From: Candidatus Omnitrophota bacterium
GTDB lineage: Bacteria > Ratteibacteria > UBA8468 > B48-G9 > JAFGKM01
DNA: 64,000 nucleotides
Reading direction: 5' to 3'
NCBI GenBank assembly: GCA_023819375.1
Contig: JAMWDI010000001.1
Span: 107,685-171,684, forward strand
Part shown: positions 2,543-37,148 of the stretch, one piece after another
How the letters are laid out: each line of letters starts with the position of its first letter
Numbering within the stretch: position 1 is the stretch's first letter
Notes under the pieces: model-generated
Databases searched by the model: none
Seen by the model: only the letters and a program-made list of their open reading frames with translations
What the model was told of the DNA's origin: nothing
Position numbers and translations under genes: made by a program

Positions 2543-3277
2543 TTATTCTATGTCTTTCCCTAAAATTCCATTTTTTGTTAAATTTATATCTGGATATCCA
2601 TCATTTGCTGGTAAAATTTCTTTTGCTTTTCTAAATTCAACATGACCATCAACAAATAAATAATTTCTACTTCCTTCCCAACTCCACCATCCATTATTCC
2701 CACCTGTGTGATTATCAAGCCATTCTGCAATTATTATTTTTTTGGTAGGATATGCAACCTGTGAAATTTTTTGACCTACTGTAGGAAAAATTTTATTTTT
2801 ATCATATGTATAACTTTTGTCATCCATCTGGTTAATCTGTTCTGGAGAGTGATAAAAACTCATTGAATATCCATATGAAGTAGATTCCCATTTAGTTGGT
2901 GCAGTTTTATCAGAAGGACAGTGAAAAATATCTTTTGGTCTTGAAAATCTCTTTTTAATTTTGTCATAAGAATATGGATTTATATTTACAAAATAAGGGC
3001 CTATAAGAATTCTCCATCCACGTCCCATCCATAGCCAGTAACCTTCAGGAAATGGATCTTGATATGCAGGGAAAAAACCTTCATAATCATCCGTATACAT
3101 TGAAAACGCAATATATATCTGTTTTAAATTATTCATACATACTGCCTGTCTTGCCCTTTCTCTTGCTTTACTTAACGCAGGCAAAATTAAACTTGATAAA
3201 ATTGATACTATCATAACTACTACTAATAATTCAATTAAAACAAAACCATTACTTTTTATTTTTCTTTCTATAGTCAT
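2543..3277 (-). CDS. Prepilin-type N-terminal cleavage/methylation domain protein with DUF1559-like C-terminal region
   Basis: 244 aa. Short basic leader then G-FVLIELLVVVMIVSILSSLILP (class III signal). C-terminal NYLFVDGHVEF resembles the DUF1559 signature. Overlaps iscU by 29 nt. Confidence 0.65.
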   Translation of the reverse strand: MTIERKIKSNGFVLIELLVVVMIVSILSSLILPALSKARERARQAVCMNNLKQIYIAFSMYTDDYEGFFPAYQDPFPEGYWLWMGRGWRILIGPYFVNINPYSYDKIKKRFSRPKDIFHCPSDKTAPTKWESTSYGYSMSFYHSPEQINQMDDKSYTYDKNKIFPTVGQKISQVAYPTKKIIIAEWLDNHTGGNNGWWSWEGSRNYLFVDGHVEFRKAKEILPANDGYPDINLTKNGILGKDIE

Positions 3278-9857: not shown

Positions 9858-11162
9858 CTATTTTAAAATTTCCTTTAAATCCTTTTCTGGTTCTTCAACA
9901 AGTTTTAAATTAAATTCACTTACCAAATATTTTAAAATTTCTTCATTTATCCATGCAGGTATAATTGGACCTATTCTAATCCCTTTAATTCCAAGATATA
10001 ATAAAGACCATAAAATCGCTACTGCTTTCTGTTCCATCCACATTAAAAAATAAGAAACAGGTAAATCATTAATATCTTTAACATTAAAAAGTTCTGCCAA
10101 AGAAGAGATTATATCTATTCCAACTATTGCATCATTACACTGGCCTATATCTATAAGTCGTGGTACCCCTTCAATATCACCAAGAGCCAAATCATTAAAT
10201 CTAAATTTTCCACAAGCAAGAGTTATTACAATTGTATCCTTTGGTAATATTTCAACAAGTTTTCTAAAATATTCATTTTTATTTGTAGGACTATCACATC
10301 CTCCAATAACAAAAACTCTTCTTATTTTACCGTTTTCTATCAGTTCCTTTATTTTTTCTTTTGAAGACAAAATTGATGATAAAGAAAAACCAGTTGTTAA
10401 AATAGTATCTCCATTTTTTTCAGGTAAATCAGGTAATGTTTTTGCTTTTTCAATGACCTCTGAAAAATCATATCCAGTTATATGTTTAACTTCTGGAAGT
10501 CCTACAATGCCTGTTGTAAAAATTCTATCTTTATATTCATCTTTTGGAATTAAAACACAATTGGAACTTCCAACAATACAAGCAGGAATTTCTGAAAATA
10601 ATTTTTTCTGGTCATACCATGCCTTTCCCAAATTTCCAATAAGATTATCATATTTTCTTATGCCTGGATATCCATGAGCAGGTAAAAGTTCTGAATGAGT
10701 ATAAACATTTATTCCTTTATCTTTGGATTGTTTTAAAATTTCCTCAAGAACTTTTAAACTATGACCTGTAACTATTATACCTTTCCCTTTTCTTGTTCCT
10801 GTAAATACTTCAACTGACTCTGGTTCTCCATATGTTTCAATATGTGCTTTTTTTAACAATTTCATTGTTTCTATATTTATTTTTCCAATATCAAGGGCAA
10901 GTTTAATAAATTTTTCAGTATCAAAATTCACATTTGTTAATGTTGAATATAAAGTTTCAACAAGAAATTTCTCAAGTTTACTGTTTCTATATCCAAGTTC
11001 AGATGCATGATAAAGATAAGCACTTATACCTTTAAGACCAAAAATTAAATTATCCTGCAATCTTGATAATGTTGGACTTTTACCACATACACCATAATTT
11101 ATACATCCTTTTCCCTGACTTGTTTGACTACACTGATAACAAAACATTTTAAAATCTGCCAT
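9858..11162 (-). CDS. hcp: Hybrid cluster protein (prismane; hydroxylamine reductase)
   Basis: 434 aa. Hallmark N-terminal MFCYQCSQT...GC motif and multiple conserved Cys/His/Glu ligand blocks. GGAGG Shine-Dalgarno upstream. Confidence 0.85.
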
Positions 11163-21911: not shown

Positions 21912-21995
21912 GCCGAAGTGGCGGAATGGAAGACGCGCCAGGTTCAGGACCTGGTGAGGTAAAACCTCGTAGGGGTTCAAATCCCCTCTTCGGCA
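21912..21995 (+). tRNA. tRNA-Leu (anticodon CAG), class II with long variable arm
   Basis: Manual cloverleaf: acceptor GCCGAAG/CTTCGGC, D-stem GCG/CGC, anticodon stem CCAGG/CCTGG with loop TTCAGGA (anticodon CAG, G37), variable arm TGAGGTAAAACCTCGTA, T-arm AGGGG-TTCAAAT-CCCCT, discriminator A. No encoded 3' CCA. Confidence 0.8.
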
Positions 21996-29173: not shown

Positions 29174-29182
29174 GTGTATAAT
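29154..29182 (+). promoter_or_regulatory. Putative promoter for the pilin genes (TTGCAG, 17 nt, TATAAT)
   Basis: TTGCAG at 29154-29159 inside the pilC 3' end, TATAAT at 29177-29182, AGGAGGTG Shine-Dalgarno at 29201-29208 before the ATG at 29214. Confidence 0.4.
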
Positions 29183-29213: not shown

Positions 29214-29588
29214 ATGAAAAAAAATAAAAAGAAAGGTTTTACTTTGATTGAATTGATGACAGTGGTAATTATTGTTGGAATTTTAGCGTCAGTTGCTGTT
29301 CCTCTTTATAGAGGACAAGTCAAAAGAGCAATGGCAGCAGAAGGAGCAGCATTACTTGGTTCTGTAAGAACTGCTGAAAGAGTCTATTATGCTGAACATG
29401 GAAAATATACAGATGATAAAACAAAACTGGGGATAGATACAACTGGAAACAAATATTTTAAAGATTATACGATTACACTTACAGGTGGAGGCACTGGATT
29501 TATCGCAACAACAACTGGAGAAGGAGATGCTGCAGGAATTACTGTATCCATTGACCAGGATGGAAATTTAACTTATTCTGGAATTTAA
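29214..29588 (+). CDS. pilA: Type IV major pilin (copy 1)
   Basis: 124 aa. Leader MKKNKKKG then FTLIELMTVVIIVGILA (class III signal, Glu at +5); small Gly/Thr-rich C-terminal domain. Confidence 0.85.
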   Translation: MKKNKKKGFTLIELMTVVIIVGILASVAVPLYRGQVKRAMAAEGAALLGSVRTAERVYYAEHGKYTDDKTKLGIDTTGNKYFKDYTITLTGGGTGFIATTTGEGDAAGITVSIDQDGNLTYSGI

Positions 29589-29608: not shown

Positions 29609-29983
29609 ATGAAAAAAAACAAAAAGAAAGGTTTTACTTTAATTGAGTTGATGACAGTGGTAATTATTGTTGGAATTCTTGCTGCTATTGCTGTTCCTCT
29701 TTATAGAAGCAATGTCAAAAGAGCAATGGCAGCAGAAGGAGCAGCATTACTTGGTTCTGTAAGAACTGCTGAAAGAGTCTATTATGCTGAACATGGAAAA
29801 TATACAGATGATAAAACAAAACTGGCAGTAGATACAAGTGGAAACAAATATTTTAAAGATTATACGATTACACTTACAGGTGGAGGCACTGGATTTGTCG
29901 CAACAACAACTGGAGAAGGAGATGCTGCAGGAATTACTGTATCCATTGACCAGGATGGAAATTTAACTTATTCTGGAATTTAG
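29609..29983 (+). CDS. pilA: Type IV major pilin (copy 2, tandem paralogue)
   Basis: 124 aa, same architecture as copy 1, own AGGGAGGG Shine-Dalgarno, TAG stop instead of TAA. Confidence 0.85.
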   Translation: MKKNKKKGFTLIELMTVVIIVGILAAIAVPLYRSNVKRAMAAEGAALLGSVRTAERVYYAEHGKYTDDKTKLAVDTSGNKYFKDYTITLTGGGTGFVATTTGEGDAAGITVSIDQDGNLTYSGI

Positions 29984-32029: not shown

Positions 32030-32539
32030 ATGGAGAGAAAAAAACTAACTTTACTTGTTTTAACTATAGTTTTAATACTTCTTTGGGCATGGCAATTAAA
32101 ACCAAAAAAGAAGAAAATAAATATTGAACCTATAATTGAAGAAAAAGAAATTATTGCTGGAATTAATTTAAGAGAAATAGAAGAAAATTTTTCAGAAATA
32201 AAGAAAAAAATAGTTGAAATTGAAAATATTAATAAAGCCAACATTGGAAAGATTACAATTCAAAAAAATCCATTGAAACCCTGGATTTTAAGAAAAGAAT
32301 CTCTAACAAAAGAGGAGAAAGAACCTGAAAAACCCAATTTTAAAATATCTGGAATTGTTCAAGGTAGCAAAAAATCTTATGTAATAATTGATAATGAAGT
32401 AAAAGAAGAAGGAGAAACAATTGGAAATTTTATAATTTTTAAAATCTACCCCGAAAAAGTTATTTTGAAAGATATGACTGGAAATTTTTTTACCTTAAAT
32501 TTTGAATTTGAACAAGGAGGAAACAATGAAAAACAGTAA
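32030..32539 (+). CDS. PilP-like pilus assembly protein
   Basis: 169 aa, N-terminal hydrophobic anchor, C-terminal beta-rich region (FKISGIVQGSKKSYVIIDNE). Positioned before the secretin. Confidence 0.4.
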   Translation: MERKKLTLLVLTIVLILLWAWQLKPKKKKINIEPIIEEKEIIAGINLREIEENFSEIKKKIVEIENINKANIGKITIQKNPLKPWILRKESLTKEEKEPEKPNFKISGIVQGSKKSYVIIDNEVKEEGETIGNFIIFKIYPEKVILKDMTGNFFTLNFEFEQGGNNEKQ

Positions 32540-33848
32540 GAAATTAACCCTTTTTATTCTTTTTTTATTGATAGGAATCCTTTGTTATTGTGAAGAAAAA
32601 TTAACAATTACTTTTTATCAAACAAAACTTGCTCATGTTTTACAGATATTGAGTAAAAAAACAGGTATAAAAATAATAACAAGTAGTGAATTAGGAGAAA
32701 AACCAATAAGTGCATATCTGGAAAATGTAACAGGAGAAGAAGCAATTGATTCTATATTAAAAGCAAATGGATTATATAAAGAAAAACTTCCAGATAGTGA
32801 TGTTTATATAGTTAAGGAATTTAAAGAAACGCCAAAATTAATATCTGAAGTTATATTTTTACAATATTCAAAAGCAGAAGATCTCGGAAAAGTTTTGACA
32901 CCACTGTTAAGTAAAAATGGGAAAATAATAATTGATACAAGAACAAATAGTTTAACAATTCAAGATACAGAAGAAAATTTGAATGATTTGAAAAGAGTTA
33001 TAAGTTTACTTGACAGAAGTATTCCCTGTGTCCAGATTGAAGCGGTTTTAGTTGAATTGACAGAAGACGGGCTTAAAGATCTTGGAATTAAATGGAATGT
33101 TGAAGCCACTTTGACAGGAGGGGCAAAAGATGTAACTTTTCCATGGATGGGACCTTCTTTAGAACATGAAATTGTGAATCCAAGACAAGGCACAATAACT
33201 GGACAAGGAGCTGTCGTTTCTACTGGACCTCAATTTATTCTTGGTACTTTATCTTTTCAAGCACTTACTGCTACTTTAAAATTACTTGAGGTTAAAGGAG
33301 AGGCAAACATTCTTGCAAATCCAAGAGTGACGACTTTAAATGATACACCTGCAACAATAAAAATAACAAAAAATATGGCAGTTGCTGAAAAAGTCATTTA
33401 CACATATGCAACAGCAGGAACAATGGCTCCTACTACAAAAGAACCAATTTTTGCTGAAGTAGGTGTGACATTAATTGCAACACCTCATGTAAATGAAAAA
33501 GGAGATATAATTTTAGAAGTTGAACCAACAGTTTCTTCAGCAGAAAGATCGCCATTTTTTGCTGAAGCAGTTGACACAAATATAAGAACTGCAAAAACAA
33601 AAGTTAAAGTAAAAGATGGAGAAACAATTGTAATAGGAGGACTTTTAAGAACAGAAAAGACCAAAAACAGCACAAAAGTTCCAATCCTTGGGGATATTTT
33701 TCCTTTCCTTTTTAAAAACAAAACACAAACAAATAAAAAAACAGATCTTGTAATATTCTTAACTCCAAAAATAATAACGGAAAAAGAGTTAAAAGAAATA
33801 GTGGAAAAAGAGAAACAAAGATTTGAAGAGAAAGATGAAAAAAAATAG
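32526..33848 (+). CDS. pilQ: Type IV pilus secretin PilQ
   Basis: Start placed at ATG 32526 (MKNSKK) with GGAGG upstream. Secretin C-domain motifs (GETIVIGGL, VPILGDIFPFLF, LVIFLTPKII). Confidence 0.85.
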   Translation: MKNSKKLTLFILFLLIGILCYCEEKLTITFYQTKLAHVLQILSKKTGIKIITSSELGEKPISAYLENVTGEEAIDSILKANGLYKEKLPDSDVYIVKEFKETPKLISEVIFLQYSKAEDLGKVLTPLLSKNGKIIIDTRTNSLTIQDTEENLNDLKRVISLLDRSIPCVQIEAVLVELTEDGLKDLGIKWNVEATLTGGAKDVTFPWMGPSLEHEIVNPRQGTITGQGAVVSTGPQFILGTLSFQALTATLKLLEVKGEANILANPRVTTLNDTPATIKITKNMAVAEKVIYTYATAGTMAPTTKEPIFAEVGVTLIATPHVNEKGDIILEVEPTVSSAERSPFFAEAVDTNIRTAKTKVKVKDGETIVIGGLLRTEKTKNSTKVPILGDIFPFLFKNKTQTNKKTDLVIFLTPKIITEKELKEIVEKEKQRFEEKDEKK

Positions 33849-34227
33849 TGGATATTCACTTGTTGAAATTTTAGTTTCAATTTTAATTTTAACAATAGGA
33901 ATTTTTGGAACCCTTTATTATTTTTTTTACAGTCAAACAAATTTAAACTTAGAAAGGCACAGAAGAACAGCATTGCAAATTGCTCATTCAAGAATTGAAT
34001 TCCTTAGAACTGTAAATTATAATAATCTTATGGATTATGTTGAAAATGGGGTAGAAGTTGATATAGATGAAATTAAAGGAAGAAGATTTACAATAATTGA
34101 AGATATTAATGATCCTGAAGATGCAGATACTAATCCTGATTATAAAAAAATAACAGTTAAAGTTGTCTGGTATGAAAATAAAAGAAATAATGAAGTAGTT
34201 TTACGAACTTTAATAGCGCCATGGTAA
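33823..34227 (+). CDS. Minor pilin / pseudopilin (prepilin-type N-terminal methylation domain)
   Basis: 134 aa with G-YSLVEILVSILILTIGIFG class III signal. Confidence 0.6.
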   Translation: MKRKMKKNSGYSLVEILVSILILTIGIFGTLYYFFYSQTNLNLERHRRTALQIAHSRIEFLRTVNYNNLMDYVENGVEVDIDEIKGRRFTIIEDINDPEDADTNPDYKKITVKVVWYENKRNNEVVLRTLIAPW

Positions 34228-34469
34228 AAAAAAGTGGATTAACTATTATTGAAATGATTGTTGCATTAGTAAGTGGAATTGTTATTATCTTAACTGTTGG
34301 ATATATTCTTTATTATAGTAATAAAACATATAGAAGAGAAGAGAAAATTATGGAATTAAAAAGAGAAGCAGTGTTTGGTGTCAGATTTATAGAAAGGAAA
34401 ATAAGAGAAAAGAAACCAGAACAAATTGAAATTCAGGAATCAGGAAGAAAATTAATTATTAAAAAATAA
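34221..34469 (+). CDS. Minor pilin-like protein (prepilin-type N-terminus)
   Basis: 82 aa with G-LTIIEMIVALVSGIVII class III signal. Confidence 0.5.
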   Translation: MVKKSGLTIIEMIVALVSGIVIILTVGYILYYSNKTYRREEKIMELKREAVFGVRFIERKIREKKPEQIEIQESGRKLIIKK

Positions 34470-34473
34470 AATA

Positions 34474-34502
34474 TTGACAAAATAATTTCAGTAGGGTATT
34501 AT
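34474..34502 (+). promoter_or_regulatory. Internal consensus promoter (TTGACA, 17 nt, TATTAT) within the pilus locus
   Basis: TTGACA at 34474-34479, TATTAT at 34497-34502, AGGGGGAA Shine-Dalgarno at 34511-34518, TTG start at 34521. Confidence 0.5.
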
Positions 34503-34520
34503 TTTTAAAAAGGGGGAAAT

Positions 34521-35009
34521 TTGAAAAAAAGTTATTTATTTTTAACTGAAATATTATTACTTACTTTTATACTTGCAGGATGTGAATGTGGTCCTGGAAT
34601 ACCAGAAGAACCAATTGATAGACCTGAACCAGAATTACCACCACCTTCTCCACCTACTCCACCACCTTCTACTACTCAAGATGAATATTTCCAACTTGAA
34701 GGGAATAATCTTGTTTATTTTGATGGAAAAAATAAATATTATTTAATAAAAGGAAAAGTTGAAAGTGTAAAATTTGAAAAAGTAAAAGGAGATGGGAATT
34801 CTTATTATATAAGTGTAAATTTAAAACTAAAGGATGGACAAATAATAACCAATCTGGATTCAATAATTGCCTTAAGGAACATAAACAGAACTGTAAATTC
34901 GGGAACATCTTCAGGTGGTTCAGTTGATCCAGGTGGAGGTACTTCTCCACCACCTAATTTTGAACCAATAGAACCACCAGAAGTTGGCCCAGTAATACCA
35001 CCATATTAA
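34521..35009 (+). CDS. Lipoprotein with proline-rich linker (pilus-locus associated)
   Basis: 162 aa, TTG start. Lipobox LAGC, Pro-rich tracts (PPPSPPTPPPS; C-terminal PPPNFEPIEPPEVGPVIPP). Confidence 0.5.
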   Translation: MKKSYLFLTEILLLTFILAGCECGPGIPEEPIDRPEPELPPPSPPTPPPSTTQDEYFQLEGNNLVYFDGKNKYYLIKGKVESVKFEKVKGDGNSYYISVNLKLKDGQIITNLDSIIALRNINRTVNSGTSSGGSVDPGGGTSPPPNFEPIEPPEVGPVIPPY

Positions 35010-35010
35010 A

Positions 35011-36009
35011 ATGAAAAAAGGGATTGCTTTAATTTCAGTAGTAATGATTGTTATGATACTTACATTAATGGGTCTTGCTTTTTTGAATATGTCTGGTCTT
35101 GAAAATATATTATCTAAAAGACAAAATTTTTATTTAAAAGCCCTTAATATTGCAGAAGCAGGACTTGAAAGAGCCTTGTGGAAATTAACGAAACAGCCTA
35201 ATTGGAGAAGTGGATGGAATAACATTTCTTTTGATGATGGGTATTATAAAGTAACTCTATCAGATCAATCAGATGGAACAATCTTAATAATTTCTACTGG
35301 ATATTGTAAAAATATAAGTAAGACAGTAAAAGCAACTGTAAGAGTTTCGTCTTCCTCATCTTCTCCTTCGATATCTTTTACATTAGGAACATCTTTGGGT
35401 AATCTTGGAGATTTTCCAGGATCTTATGGAGACATAGGACAAAGTTTTACAACTGGCTCATCTCAAATAAAGGTTGCAAGAGTGGAAATGCAAATAAAAA
35501 AGGACAACCCAAACGTAAGTGATATTTATATGACTATAAGAAGTGGAAGCACAGTTGGTCAAATTTTAGGAACAAGCAATATAATACCAAATTCTCAAAT
35601 TCCTTCTGGAAATGCTTTATGGATTTCTTTTAATTTTGATCCCCCTGTTTTACTTCAACCAAATACAAAATATTATTTAAGATTATCTTCAATTCCGCCT
35701 TCTACAAATCCATATTCAGGAGCACAAGGTAAGATACACCTTGTCTATGCAAATCCTTCATATAGAAGAGTTGGAGGAGGACATACGAGTAGTGATATAG
35801 GAGATGGATTACCAAGTTATGATGAACCTGGTTTTGTTGAAGTAAGTCCGTATGTATATGGTGAAGCATATAGATATATAGGAAGAAACAATAATCCATC
35901 ATATCCAGGTGAAGTTTTAAATCATGATTTTAATTTCAGGATTTTTAGTACTTCAAGTGGAAGCGTAAACATAATAAACTGGACTGAAGAACCATACAAT
36001 AATTTTTAA
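35011..36009 (+). CDS. PilX-like minor pilin / pilus-associated protein
   Basis: 332 aa. N-terminal PilX_N-like hydrophobic segment (GIALISVVMIVMILTLMGLAFL), Ser-rich tract. Confidence 0.5.
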   Translation: MKKGIALISVVMIVMILTLMGLAFLNMSGLENILSKRQNFYLKALNIAEAGLERALWKLTKQPNWRSGWNNISFDDGYYKVTLSDQSDGTILIISTGYCKNISKTVKATVRVSSSSSSPSISFTLGTSLGNLGDFPGSYGDIGQSFTTGSSQIKVARVEMQIKKDNPNVSDIYMTIRSGSTVGQILGTSNIIPNSQIPSGNALWISFNFDPPVLLQPNTKYYLRLSSIPPSTNPYSGAQGKIHLVYANPSYRRVGGGHTSSDIGDGLPSYDEPGFVEVSPYVYGEAYRYIGRNNNPSYPGEVLNHDFNFRIFSTSSGSVNIINWTEEPYNNF

Positions 36010-36011
36010 TT

Positions 36012-37148
36012 ATGTTTACTATTTTCATTCCATATAGAATTTGTCCACTTGGGGCTCATATTGATCATCAAAAAGGGAAAGTCCTTGGAATTACTATTGA
36101 TAGAGGAACTATTCTGAAATTTGAAAAAATAGAAGGAAAGATAAAATTAAAAAGTATAAATTTTAATGAAGAAGTTGAATTTGAAATCAATGAAGAATTG
36201 GATAAAGAGGGAAAATGGTTTGATTTACTTAAAGGTTGTGTTTATATATTAAGAGATACTTTCAAAATTAAGAATGGAATTAAAGGAGAAATTCTGGGTC
36301 AACTTCCAAGTGGTGGCATTGGTTCCTCAGCAAGTTGTGGTCTTGCTTATCTGCTTGCTCTTGAATATGTAAATAACTTAAATATTCCTAAAGAGGAAAA
36401 CATTTTTTTATTTCAAAAAGTAGAAAATGAATATCTTAATGTTAAAAGTGGAATTCTTGACCAGTCAACAATTTTATTAAATAATAGTGACAAAAATTCA
36501 ATACTCTATCTTGATTGTAGAGATATAAAATATGAAAACGTTAAATCCAAAAATGAGATTGATTATTCTATTGTTATGGTCTACTCAGGGATTGAGAAAG
36601 TATTGCATGATACAGGCTATAACAAAAGAGTTGAAGAATGTAAAATGGCAGGGAAGCAAATTTTAGAATTTTTGGGCAAAAATTATGAAGGAGATATTTA
36701 TTTGAGAAATATTGATAAAGAGGTTTTTTTAAAATATAAAGAACAATTGCCAGAAAATTTAAGAAAAAGGGCTGAACATTTTTATAGTGAAATGGAAAGA
36801 GTTGAAAAGGGAATAGAATTTTGGAAATCAGGAGAAATAAAAGAATTTGGGAAATTAATTAAAGAATCTGGAGAAAGTTCAATAAAAAATTATGAGTGTG
36901 GAGGAAAAGAATTGATTAAAATTTATGAAATTCTAAATTCAATTAGGAATGTTTATGGGGCAAGATTTTCAGGGGCAGGGTTTCGTGGCTGGTGTTTTGG
37001 ATTTATTAAAAATGAAGAAAATGTAAAAAAAGAAATTAAAGAAATATTAGAAAATGAATATTTAAAGATTTTCCCACAATATAAGGAAAAATTTAAGATT
37101 ATTTTTGTGGATAAAAAACTTTCAATAGATATTAAGTCATTTATCTAA
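36012..37148 (+). CDS. GHMP kinase, galactokinase-like
   Basis: 378 aa. Galactokinase-type N-terminal signature (RICPLGAHIDHQKG), GHMP ATP-binding motif PSGGIGSSASCGLA. Confidence 0.7.
   Translation: MFTIFIPYRICPLGAHIDHQKGKVLGITIDRGTILKFEKIEGKIKLKSINFNEEVEFEINEELDKEGKWFDLLKGCVYILRDTFKIKNGIKGEILGQLPSGGIGSSASCGLAYLLALEYVNNLNIPKEENIFLFQKVENEYLNVKSGILDQSTILLNNSDKNSILYLDCRDIKYENVKSKNEIDYSIVMVYSGIEKVLHDTGYNKRVEECKMAGKQILEFLGKNYEGDIYLRNIDKEVFLKYKEQLPENLRKRAEHFYSEMERVEKGIEFWKSGEIKEFGKLIKESGESSIKNYECGGKELIKIYEILNSIRNVYGARFSGAGFRGWCFGFIKNEENVKKEIKEILENEYLKIFPQYKEKFKIIFVDKKLSIDIKSFI

Follow-up and report, generated by a model that had tools for sequence, protein, structure and literature searches.

The window analysed here is a 64-kb stretch of contig JAMWDI010000001.1 with a GC content of 28%. 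It comes from an uncultivated low-GC bacterium, and the locus of interest is where a type IVa pilus cluster on the + strand ends. At this distal end of the cluster, an open reading frame (ORF) of 82 amino acids (aa; 34221-34469) is followed by a putative sigma-70-type promoter (34474-34502), a Shine-Dalgarno (SD) sequence, an ORF for a predicted lipoprotein of 162 aa that starts at TTG (34521-35009) and an ORF for a PilX-like protein of 332 aa (35011-36009). A 100% identical copy of the lipoprotein is on record from a 'Candidatus Omnitrophica bacterium' metagenome-assembled genome (MAG), and relatives of the locus are labelled Omnitrophota or Ratteibacteria.

The initial annotation had let a unit begin at the promoter and had read the lipoprotein and the PilX-like protein as a candidate pilus-associated adhesin module. 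Judged by profile homology, the folded core of the lipoprotein is the C-terminal half of a minor pilin and the 82-aa ORF upstream is the N-terminal half. The unit starts at 34221, or at 33823 when the neighboring PilV-like gene is included, and the promoter marks the place where a single ancestral gene was split. The adhesin proposal survives in part: an adhesive tip role is reasonable for the C-terminal sandwich of the PilX-like protein, but the lipoprotein, the core of which is a pilin half, does not qualify as a free-standing adhesin.

Homology of the stub and the lipoprotein core to a single minor pilin

The 82-aa ORF, hereafter the stub, comprises a class III (prepilin) signal, an alpha-1 helix and one beta-hairpin. 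Its leader MVKKSG↓LTIIE (the arrow marks the processing site) agrees with the type IV pilin signal in being basic, ending in Gly and having Glu at +5, and the N_methyl match is weak (E 0.01). The chain ends at ...GRKLIIKK* after a single hairpin, the remaining strands being encoded by the next gene, so that it lacks the globular beta-sheet that a pilin forms as a single polypeptide. The stubs of 10 relatives retain this class III signal and end at the same place, with KKG↓LT(I/V)(I/V)E at the start and the stop after KLIIKK.

The structured part of the lipoprotein spans aa 53-121 (34677-34883), with six beta-strands and a short helix. We compared the profile of the lipoprotein family with 1.84 billion representative proteins and found that residues of about 55-120 match six small pilins (E 2e-6 to 3e-4). 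These pilins have about 120-180 aa; four of the six start with a classical prepilin signal, for example MRKGFTLIELLV, and the N-termini of the other two are shorter. The remaining matches were the family's own representative and five long proteins hit in several short stretches, which we took as low complexity. With its lipoprotein signal peptide instead of a class III signal, the lipoprotein ORF lacks the defining feature of a pilin despite the homology of its core to a pilin domain.

A hidden Markov model (HMM) of the unsplit pilins, run against every ORF of the window, aligns with the stub over positions 2-79 (E 7.6e-17) and with the lipoprotein core over positions 81-152 (E 2.5e-19), while the next matches are pilin N-termini only. 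Likewise, the stub matches P0035 over residues 2-78 (E 2e-14) and lipoprotein residues 56-120 match residues 87-152 of the same protein (E 4e-12). A virtual fusion of stub and lipoprotein aligns end to end with the unsplit pilins, and in hhalign the split pair and the unsplit pilins are related with a probability of 99.8%, the gap between the genes, the signal peptide and the Pro-rich linker appearing as one insertion. The lipoprotein core is 27-38% identical to the corresponding halves of the unsplit pilins and shares their conserved positions (YF motif, NLVYFDG and LRN). For the stub, the ratio of non-synonymous to synonymous substitution rates (dN/dS) lies at 0.07-0.21, and for the lipoprotein at 0.17-0.32; these values indicate that both are under purifying selection.

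The unsplit homologs pass N_methyl/TIGR02532. Against J-family profiles they score below the cut-offs (PRK10557, E 2e-7; gspJ, E 0.018), as does the stub, which gives weak matches to PRK10557 (E 0.002) and ComGF (E 0.05). A search of PDB sequences with the fused J profile returned little besides pilin N-terminal helices. By position the gene is of J type: the unsplit gene sits between a PilV-like and a PilX_N gene in loci L027, L029 and L034, the slot which the split pair occupies in the window. In L027 it is flanked by a PilV-like C-terminus and a PilX-like gene, and in L029 the order is pilin, a PilV-like protein of 136 aa, unsplit pilin, PilX_N protein, pilM, pilN, pilO, pilP and pilQ. The PilV/GspI-type minor pilin of the window is a 134-aa protein with the class III signal G↓YSLVE, encoded at 33823-34227 on the + strand, where it opens the I-J-K tip set. 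Its counterparts in L029 and L034 show 38% and 45% identity, respectively, and it matches Pfam N_methyl (E 5e-6) as well as NCBIfam PilV (E 2e-6), ComGE (E 1e-6) and GspI (E 0.008), with all NCBIfam scores below the curated cut-offs.

Derivation of the split from an unsplit gene

L034, recovered by a metagenome scan with the PilX N-domain, belongs to a sister lineage. It has a GC content of 0.28, the same neighbors on both sides, a GHMP kinase 68% identical to that of the window and the same convergent dehydrogenase gene. Here the pilin in J position is one gene of 162 aa (L034:3516-4004; HMM positions 3-152, E 2.5e-38), which overlaps the start codon of the PilX-like gene by 4 nucleotides (nt). 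No promoter motif of the TTGAC type was found anywhere on the pilin-coding strand of the L034 contig. On the same contig (1830-3111), two overlapping ORFs of 320 aa and 149 aa stand in the place of a single pilQ secretin gene, owing either to an assembly frameshift error or to a broken secretin gene.

In the DNA alignment the split loci carry about 200 extra nt, placed exactly after ...KIIIEE and ahead of the (T/E)Y motif preceding GGNLVYFDG. This insertion of about 200 nt supplied the stop codon, the promoter, the SD sequence, the start codon, the signal peptide, the lipobox and the Pro-rich linker. Because the sister L034 is unsplit and the split loci carry the extra sequence at one point, the split is derived, and it is later than the divergence from the L034 lineage. 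No donor of the inserted signal-peptide and linker segment was found among the ORFs of the window.

The split architecture is present in at least 11 independent assemblies, and stub and lipoprotein are found together wherever the contig extends far enough upstream, which it does not in L007 and L032, whose starts lie too near the lipoprotein gene. In a set of 61 loci with PilX_N-type genes, the ORF directly upstream is a pilin with a class III signal in 38, and a lipobox ORF in only two, both of the split clade.

A conserved, probable promoter at the break

The promoter was present as the initial annotation had described it, with the -35 element TTGACA at 34474-34479, a spacer of 17 nt and the -10 element TATTAT at 34497-34502, and it matches the consensus at 11 of 12 positions. 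In DNA of 28% GC a bare consensus match is near chance and weak evidence on its own: on both strands of the window we counted 10 matches of at least 11/12, compared with 5.2 +/- 2.3 in shuffled sequence, and 96 matches of at least 9/12, compared with 76.6 +/- 8.6.

Conservation is more informative. In the homologous gap of 11 distinct relatives TTGAC is invariant and the sixth base of the -35 element is A in 10; the spacer measures 16-18 nt and varies freely in sequence; and the -10 element conforms to TAnnnT in 10 of them, the other having TATAAA. The base 5' of the -10 element (34496 in the window) is G in all 11 (GTAnnnT), the relatives coming from loci L001-L017, L031 and L033. Synonymous divergence (dS) of the flanking genes from those of the window is 0.7-1.7, which is near saturation, so that neutral positions should be scrambled. 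Since TTGAC, the 16-18 nt spacer and TAnnnT have been kept despite these near-saturated synonymous sites, the promoter at 34474-34502 is probably real. The pattern TTGACn-N16-18-TAnnnT occurs 14 times in the window; five of these matches lie wholly inside non-coding DNA (3.1% of the window), all of them 19-71 nt upstream of a gene start on the same strand, and the organism evidently employs this promoter type. Its location, in the widest gap (51 nt) of a cluster whose genes otherwise overlap or lie close together, also raises the site at 34474-34502 above chance. A G before the -10 element was also seen in other intergenic promoters of the window (8804-, 11228- and the pilA promoter at 29176); it may be a lineage-specific extended -10 feature, unlike the TGn of Escherichia coli.

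A transcript start is predicted near 34509. The SD sequence AGGGGGA (34511-34517) noted by the initial annotation precedes the TTG start codon (34521-34523), whose homologous codon is ATG in 10 relatives, which supports the TTG start in the window. A purine-rich SD sequence and a start codon follow the -10 element in 10 of the 11 relatives, with GGAGG or a similar purine run in most of them. The exception is L010 (372-413), where the gap measures just 42 nt and the -10 element TATTAT is followed by AAAAACA-ATG without an SD sequence. The L010 mRNA would be leaderless or nearly so, although this is a single short contig in which an assembly error is possible. In L001 (about 9950-9962) and L014, two overlapping -35 boxes (TTGACTCTTGACA) stand ahead of one -10 element.

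No terminator was found upstream of the promoter, so read-through from the upstream genes is also expected. A terminator-like hairpin at 34932-34951 (GGTGGAGGTACTTCTCCACC, then a T-rich run), inside the coding sequence of the lipoprotein tail, was set aside as chance, as there are five such sites against 5.7 in shuffles; it is probably a by-product of Gly and Pro codons. The unit driven by the promoter probably also takes in, as its last gene, the GHMP-kinase gene at 36012-37148. Most simply, the promoter restores the expression of the genes beyond the split point. Expression independent of the pilus core, as put forward in the initial annotation, is plausible.

Sequence and predicted structure of the lipoprotein

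The lipoprotein family has 14 clusters, all from one low-GC clade, in which the core (aa 53-121) is strongly conserved. Its signal peptide covers aa 1-21 (34521-34583; MKKSYLFLTEILLLTFILAG↓C). MKKSYLFLTE-ILLLTFILAG-C21 has a basic n-region, an uncharged h-region and a lipobox, LAGC, of the form [LVI][ASTVI][GAS]C with the Cys between positions 15 and 35. Checked by hand, this fits the pattern of PROSITE PS51257; a regular expression for that pattern was applied to loci L031-L091 only. G20 and C21 of the lipobox (FILAG↓C21) are invariant in 14 of 14 family members. The protein is a predicted substrate of Lgt and LspA that would be acylated at Cys21. Just ahead of the hydrophobic core, aa 9-10 (34545-34550) are a conserved Thr-Glu pair (LTEIL; Gln or Gly in a few relatives). 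LTEIL recalls the xTLIE motif of pilins and the new signal peptide might have been derived from a pilin 5' end, the segment being very short.

The Pro-rich tracts named in the initial annotation lie on either side of the core. Upstream, a linker of aa 22-52 (34584-34676; ECGPGIPEEPIDRPEPELPPPSPPTPPPSTT), with PPPSPPTPPPS at aa 40-50, has no counterpart in the unsplit pilins and is modeled with a predicted local distance difference test (pLDDT) score below 60. Downstream, a Ser/Gly-rich and then Pro-rich tail (aa 122-162; 34884-35009 with the stop codon) is predicted to be disordered and likewise has no counterpart in the unsplit pilins; the family has a conserved C-terminal motif, F-x-P-I-E-P-P-x-x-G-P-V-I. 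In the AlphaFold2 (AF2) model the core reaches a pLDDT of about 84 and the rest is disordered.

Neither the lipoprotein nor its family profile matched Pfam, NCBIfam or PDB sequences, and hhalign detected no relationship between the lipoprotein family and the PilX-like family. PilP, pilotin and OB-fold identities were considered and dropped, as Foldseek gave no PDB match below E 0.3. The homology region (HR) domain of PilP and GspC is missing on each count, with no profile match, no fold match and a different gene position.

The PilX-like protein and the GHMP kinase

The PilX-like protein begins with a PilX/GspK-type minor pilin module (aa 1-114; 35011-35352), consisting of the leader MKKG↓IALIS, which has Ser instead of Glu at +5, a long alpha-1 helix and a small beta-sheet. 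PilX_N (PF14341) scores 31.0 bits against a gathering cut-off of 25.5 (E 2.5e-7), which confirms the PilX-like assignment of the initial annotation. The Ser-rich tract that it had also noted is a linker, SSSSSSPS (aa 113-120; 35347-35370). Beyond it lies a C-terminal beta-sandwich, or jelly-roll, of the 'choice-of-anchor R' family (aa 122-332; 35374-36009), the candidate for an adhesive or glycan-binding module of the tip. In the AF2 model, a helix spans residues 2-61, strands lie at 72-114 and the sandwich at about 121-326; pLDDT falls just past the linker, over about aa 120-140.

The choice-of-anchor R assignment (NCBIfam NF041539, aa 143-231) is marginal, with 30.8 bits against a cut-off of 30. 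In Foldseek, the whole model matches phage baseplate and central-fiber proteins (E 2e-5 to 4e-4) and the carbohydrate-binding modules CBM6/CBM4 (E 4e-3 to 3e-2); taken together with CBM6/CBM4, matches to Fbs1 sugar-binding domains and to the ephrin-receptor ligand-binding domain span E 4e-3 to 5e-2. As the query has several domains, its TM-scores are low. The baseplate and CBM6/CBM4 matches agree with a jelly-roll of the choice-of-anchor R family. A search of PDB sequences with the profile of the PilX-like protein gave no match. From the modeled fold, the lectin- or CBM-like sandwich is plausibly an adhesin at the pilus tip. A match of 44% identity to aa 130-225 was observed in a DPANN MAG of Candidatus Iainarchaeum archaeon (JAUSKK010000001.1; L026 4001-4288), so that small-celled, host-associated lineages seem to exchange the module.

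The N-domain is 34-47% identical to its counterparts in L029 (34%), L027 and L034, whose PilX-like proteins share just this pilin module and differ in their C-terminal modules. As the sister and the outgroups carry other C-terminal modules, the clade with the split J pilin has also swapped the distal module of its K subunit. More distant homologs (26-33% identical) are pilins with Glu5 signals from secretin-less pilus clusters of Patescibacteria (Spechtbacteria, Saccharibacteria).

The galactokinase-like GHMP kinase (36012-37148, + strand; a convergent gene starts at 37137) matches Pfam GHMP_kinases_N/C and GalKase_gal_bdg, with NCBIfam galactokinase models below their cut-offs. It follows the PilX-like gene at a gap of 2 nt in the window and in every relative with enough sequence, split and unsplit alike (L001, L002, L004, L006, L034). 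In L002 and L006, thrC, phosphoglycerate mutase and trkA come next. A link of the kinase to the glycosylation of pilins or of the surface is conceivable. Genes for sugar enzymes of the PMT_2, PIG-L and epimerase types lie near it on the opposite strand.

A proposed two-chain tip subunit and its alternatives

Taking the data together, we consider it probable that the J tip pilin has been split, that both halves reassemble into one tip subunit and that the promoter arose at the break. The stub would enter the inner membrane, where the prepilin peptidase would cut it behind Gly6, whereas the lipoprotein half would be exported by Sec, acylated at Cys21 by Lgt and cleaved by signal peptidase II (LspA). 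In the periplasm the six strands of the lipoprotein would complete the hairpin of the stub by beta-sheet completion and yield one lipid-tethered J-type subunit. Along with the subunits of I type (33823-34227) and K type (35011-36009), it would form part of the complex that primes or caps the fiber, with the lectin-like sandwich of the K subunit as the distal adhesive or binding module. A transcript from near 34509 would span the lipoprotein, PilX-like and GHMP-kinase genes on top of upstream read-through. A two-chain tip subunit is mechanistically credible, because PilC/PilY1 completes the beta-sheet of PilK in trans (PMC12918778).

Several points weigh against this model. A lipid anchor is awkward for a subunit that has to leave the membrane and pass the secretin, and the lipoprotein could stay behind. 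Its core folds alone with fair confidence (pLDDT of about 84) and, going by the model, may manage without the stub. Compared with the PDB by Foldseek, the lipoprotein model had only matches with E > 0.3, the best being vague PH-like beta-sandwiches. The J-type (GspJ/PilW/ComGF) label comes from gene order and from matches below cut-offs, and the evidence for the promoter is comparative, with read-through from upstream also expected.

Among the other explanations, the halves may have become uncoupled. The stub would then act as a minimal minor pilin by itself, and the lipoprotein would be a neofunctionalized tether or dock for the secretin or the tip complex, PilP- or pilotin-like and off the fiber. 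The independent folding of the core in the model is in line with this, as are the Pro-rich linker and the conserved Pro-rich C-terminal motif, which resemble periplasm-spanning tethers, and a lipid anchor suits a stationary component better than a fiber subunit; very short pilins also exist, such as the geopilin domain 1 chains of 69-90 aa. Yet we regard uncoupling as unlikely, given that the core retains the identity and conserved positions of the unsplit halves, which suggests that old contacts have been kept, that it matches no PilP, GspC HR-domain or pilotin fold, that the PilP position is already occupied by the ORF at 32030-32539 and that stub and lipoprotein co-occur in the relatives. 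Somewhat less doubtful, though still on the improbable side, is that the promoter merely secures downstream expression after the split broke translational coupling, including that of the housekeeping-like GHMP kinase, and that there is no separately regulated 'adhesin sub-operon'. The kinase gene stays 2 nt behind the PilX-like gene in all relatives, with thrC, phosphoglycerate mutase and trkA further on in L002 and L006, the promoter is of a plain constitutive-type consensus and shows no evident operator, and no terminator lies upstream. On the other hand, the unsplit L034 expresses its downstream genes without such a promoter, which ties the promoter to the split, and this explanation is compatible with a reassembled tip subunit rather than opposed to it.

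A free-standing Pro-rich lipoprotein adhesin paired with PilX, as the initial annotation had it, would account for the lipobox, the Pro-rich tracts and the adjoining PilX_N gene, but it is very improbable: the sole folded domain is the pilin half, this core has about 70 residues and matches no adhesin-type fold, and among the 61 loci a lipobox ORF precedes a PilX-like gene only in the split clade. We give almost no credence to an assembly or sequencing artifact, to pseudogene decay or to stop-codon read-through that yields a full-length pilin. Both ORFs do share a frame in the window, L001, L009 and L010, and the database entry P0006 is annotated as a fusion. However, the same architecture recurs in at least 11 independent assemblies, the gaps of 42-56 nt fall in all three frames, most of them with extra in-frame stops, and both ORFs are under purifying selection as judged by dN/dS. 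The 'fusion protein' P0006 was dismissed as a gene-calling artifact on the L010 contig, in which TGA was read as Trp.

If stub and lipoprotein do reassemble into a tip subunit, the lipid anchor could either stay on the tip or serve as a membrane latch or tether. In the boldest form, the lipid-anchored half would travel out on the pilus tip and its acyl chains would insert into a host or prey membrane as a lipid grapple, an acylated, Pro-rich-tethered N-terminus then lying beside the lectin-like K module on the far tip of a retractile fiber. We hold this to be quite unlikely. In a weaker form of the idea, the tether is a latch that keeps the primed tip complex from leaving the membrane before extension is set off. 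The group is suspected of host-dependent or predatory lifestyles (PMC10066038).

Comparison with known systems

The I-, J- and K-like gene order is that of the GspI-GspJ-GspK, PilV-PilW-PilX and ComGE-ComGF-ComGG tip complexes. As in those sets, the I and J members have a class III signal with Glu5 and the K member lacks Glu5 and carries PilX_N, and the weak profile matches fall in the corresponding order ComGE, ComGF and ComGG/GspK, with all family-specific scores below cut-offs. Unlike in those sets, the J member consists of two genes here, with two proposed export routes, through prepilin peptidase and as a lipoprotein.

To our knowledge, type IV pilins are always single polypeptides, and both membrane extraction and polymerization require alpha-1 helix and globular domain to be part of one chain. 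In a literature search we found no relevant paper on minor pilins that are split or made as lipoproteins, and a survey of Omnitrophota pili does not go into minor pilins (PMC10066038). A close parallel is known from Neisseria and Acinetobacter, where PilK obtains the last beta-strand of its fold in trans from PilC/PilY1 (Ellison et al. 2026, PMC12918778); it demonstrates that two-chain pilin folds work and withstand load (PMC12918778). In both systems the sheet of a tip minor pilin would be completed by a separately exported non-pilin chain. In PilK/PilC, though, one strand of about 10 residues comes from a large adhesin and completes the K subunit, whereas here about 70 residues forming six strands would come from a small, pilin-derived lipoprotein and complete the J subunit.

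Other systems share single features with the locus. PilB and PilC of Streptococcus sanguinis join a pilin module to a C-terminal von Willebrand factor A (vWA) or lectin-type module that gives adhesion (PMC8179133, PMC9934059). The PilX-like protein is similarly modular, with a pilin module, a Ser-rich linker and a CBM-like sandwich, but its module is of the choice-of-anchor R family, sits on a K-type tip pilin of a diderm and has a predicted binding role. PilP, the inner-membrane lipoprotein of the type IVa pilus alignment complex, likewise has a small beta domain behind a lipobox and a disordered Pro-rich linker and is encoded in a pil cluster, but the lipoprotein described here has no sequence or fold similarity to PilP/GspC HR domains and its core is homologous to a pilin half. 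The type V pilins of Bacteroidota (FimA/Mfa1) are made as lipoprotein precursors and assembled by strand exchange, the anchor being removed by proteolysis before polymerization. They share with the present case the lipoprotein route for a pilus subunit, while fold and machinery are unrelated, and we know of no anchor-removing step here, nor is one predicted.

What appears to be new is a naturally split pilin with both halves under purifying selection and the globular half borne by a predicted lipoprotein. If the model is right, a pilin fold can be built from two chains arriving by two export routes, and beta-strand complementation in trans in tip complexes extends from the K to the J subunit. 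The locus would then be a natural system for asking what the globular domain of J does in priming. It would also be a case of clade-specific remodeling of the pilus tip, combining a split J pilin with a swapped lectin-like K module that also occurs on pilins of Patescibacteria. The pili of these uncultivated, small-celled lineages are presumed to serve attachment to other cells. In annotation, the 'hypothetical lipoproteins' and the 'hypothetical proteins' of 80 aa in split loci can now be named.

The surrounding pilus cluster

Upstream of the tip genes, the + strand encodes pilB (start 25213), pilT (start 26877) and pilC (start 27947), then two tandem, near-identical major-pilin genes of 124 aa (29214-29588 and 29609-29983), and then pilM (start 29994), pilN-like (start 30878) and pilO-like (start 31495) genes, the ORF in PilP position between pilO and pilQ (32030-32539) and the pilQ secretin (start 32502). 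From pilM to the stub the genes overlap or are at most 4 nt apart, and the largest intergenic gap of the 12-kb cluster, 51 nt, is the one between the stub and the lipoprotein gene. Neither GspH/FimU-type nor PilY1/PilC genes were found in the cluster. An Rfam scan of the window returned nothing in the pilus-tip region, its sole match being a tRNA at 21912-21995.

Directly after the pilC stop codon and ahead of the tandem major pilins, a perfect TATAAT is located at 29176-29181 with a weak -35 element; the relative L002 has a complete TTGACA-16-TATAAT at the position matching this -10 element. Outside the pilus cluster, a 244-aa protein encoded on the - strand (2543-3277), adjoining nifU and nadA, combines a prepilin-type N-terminus with a DUF1559 (SBP_bac_10) domain.

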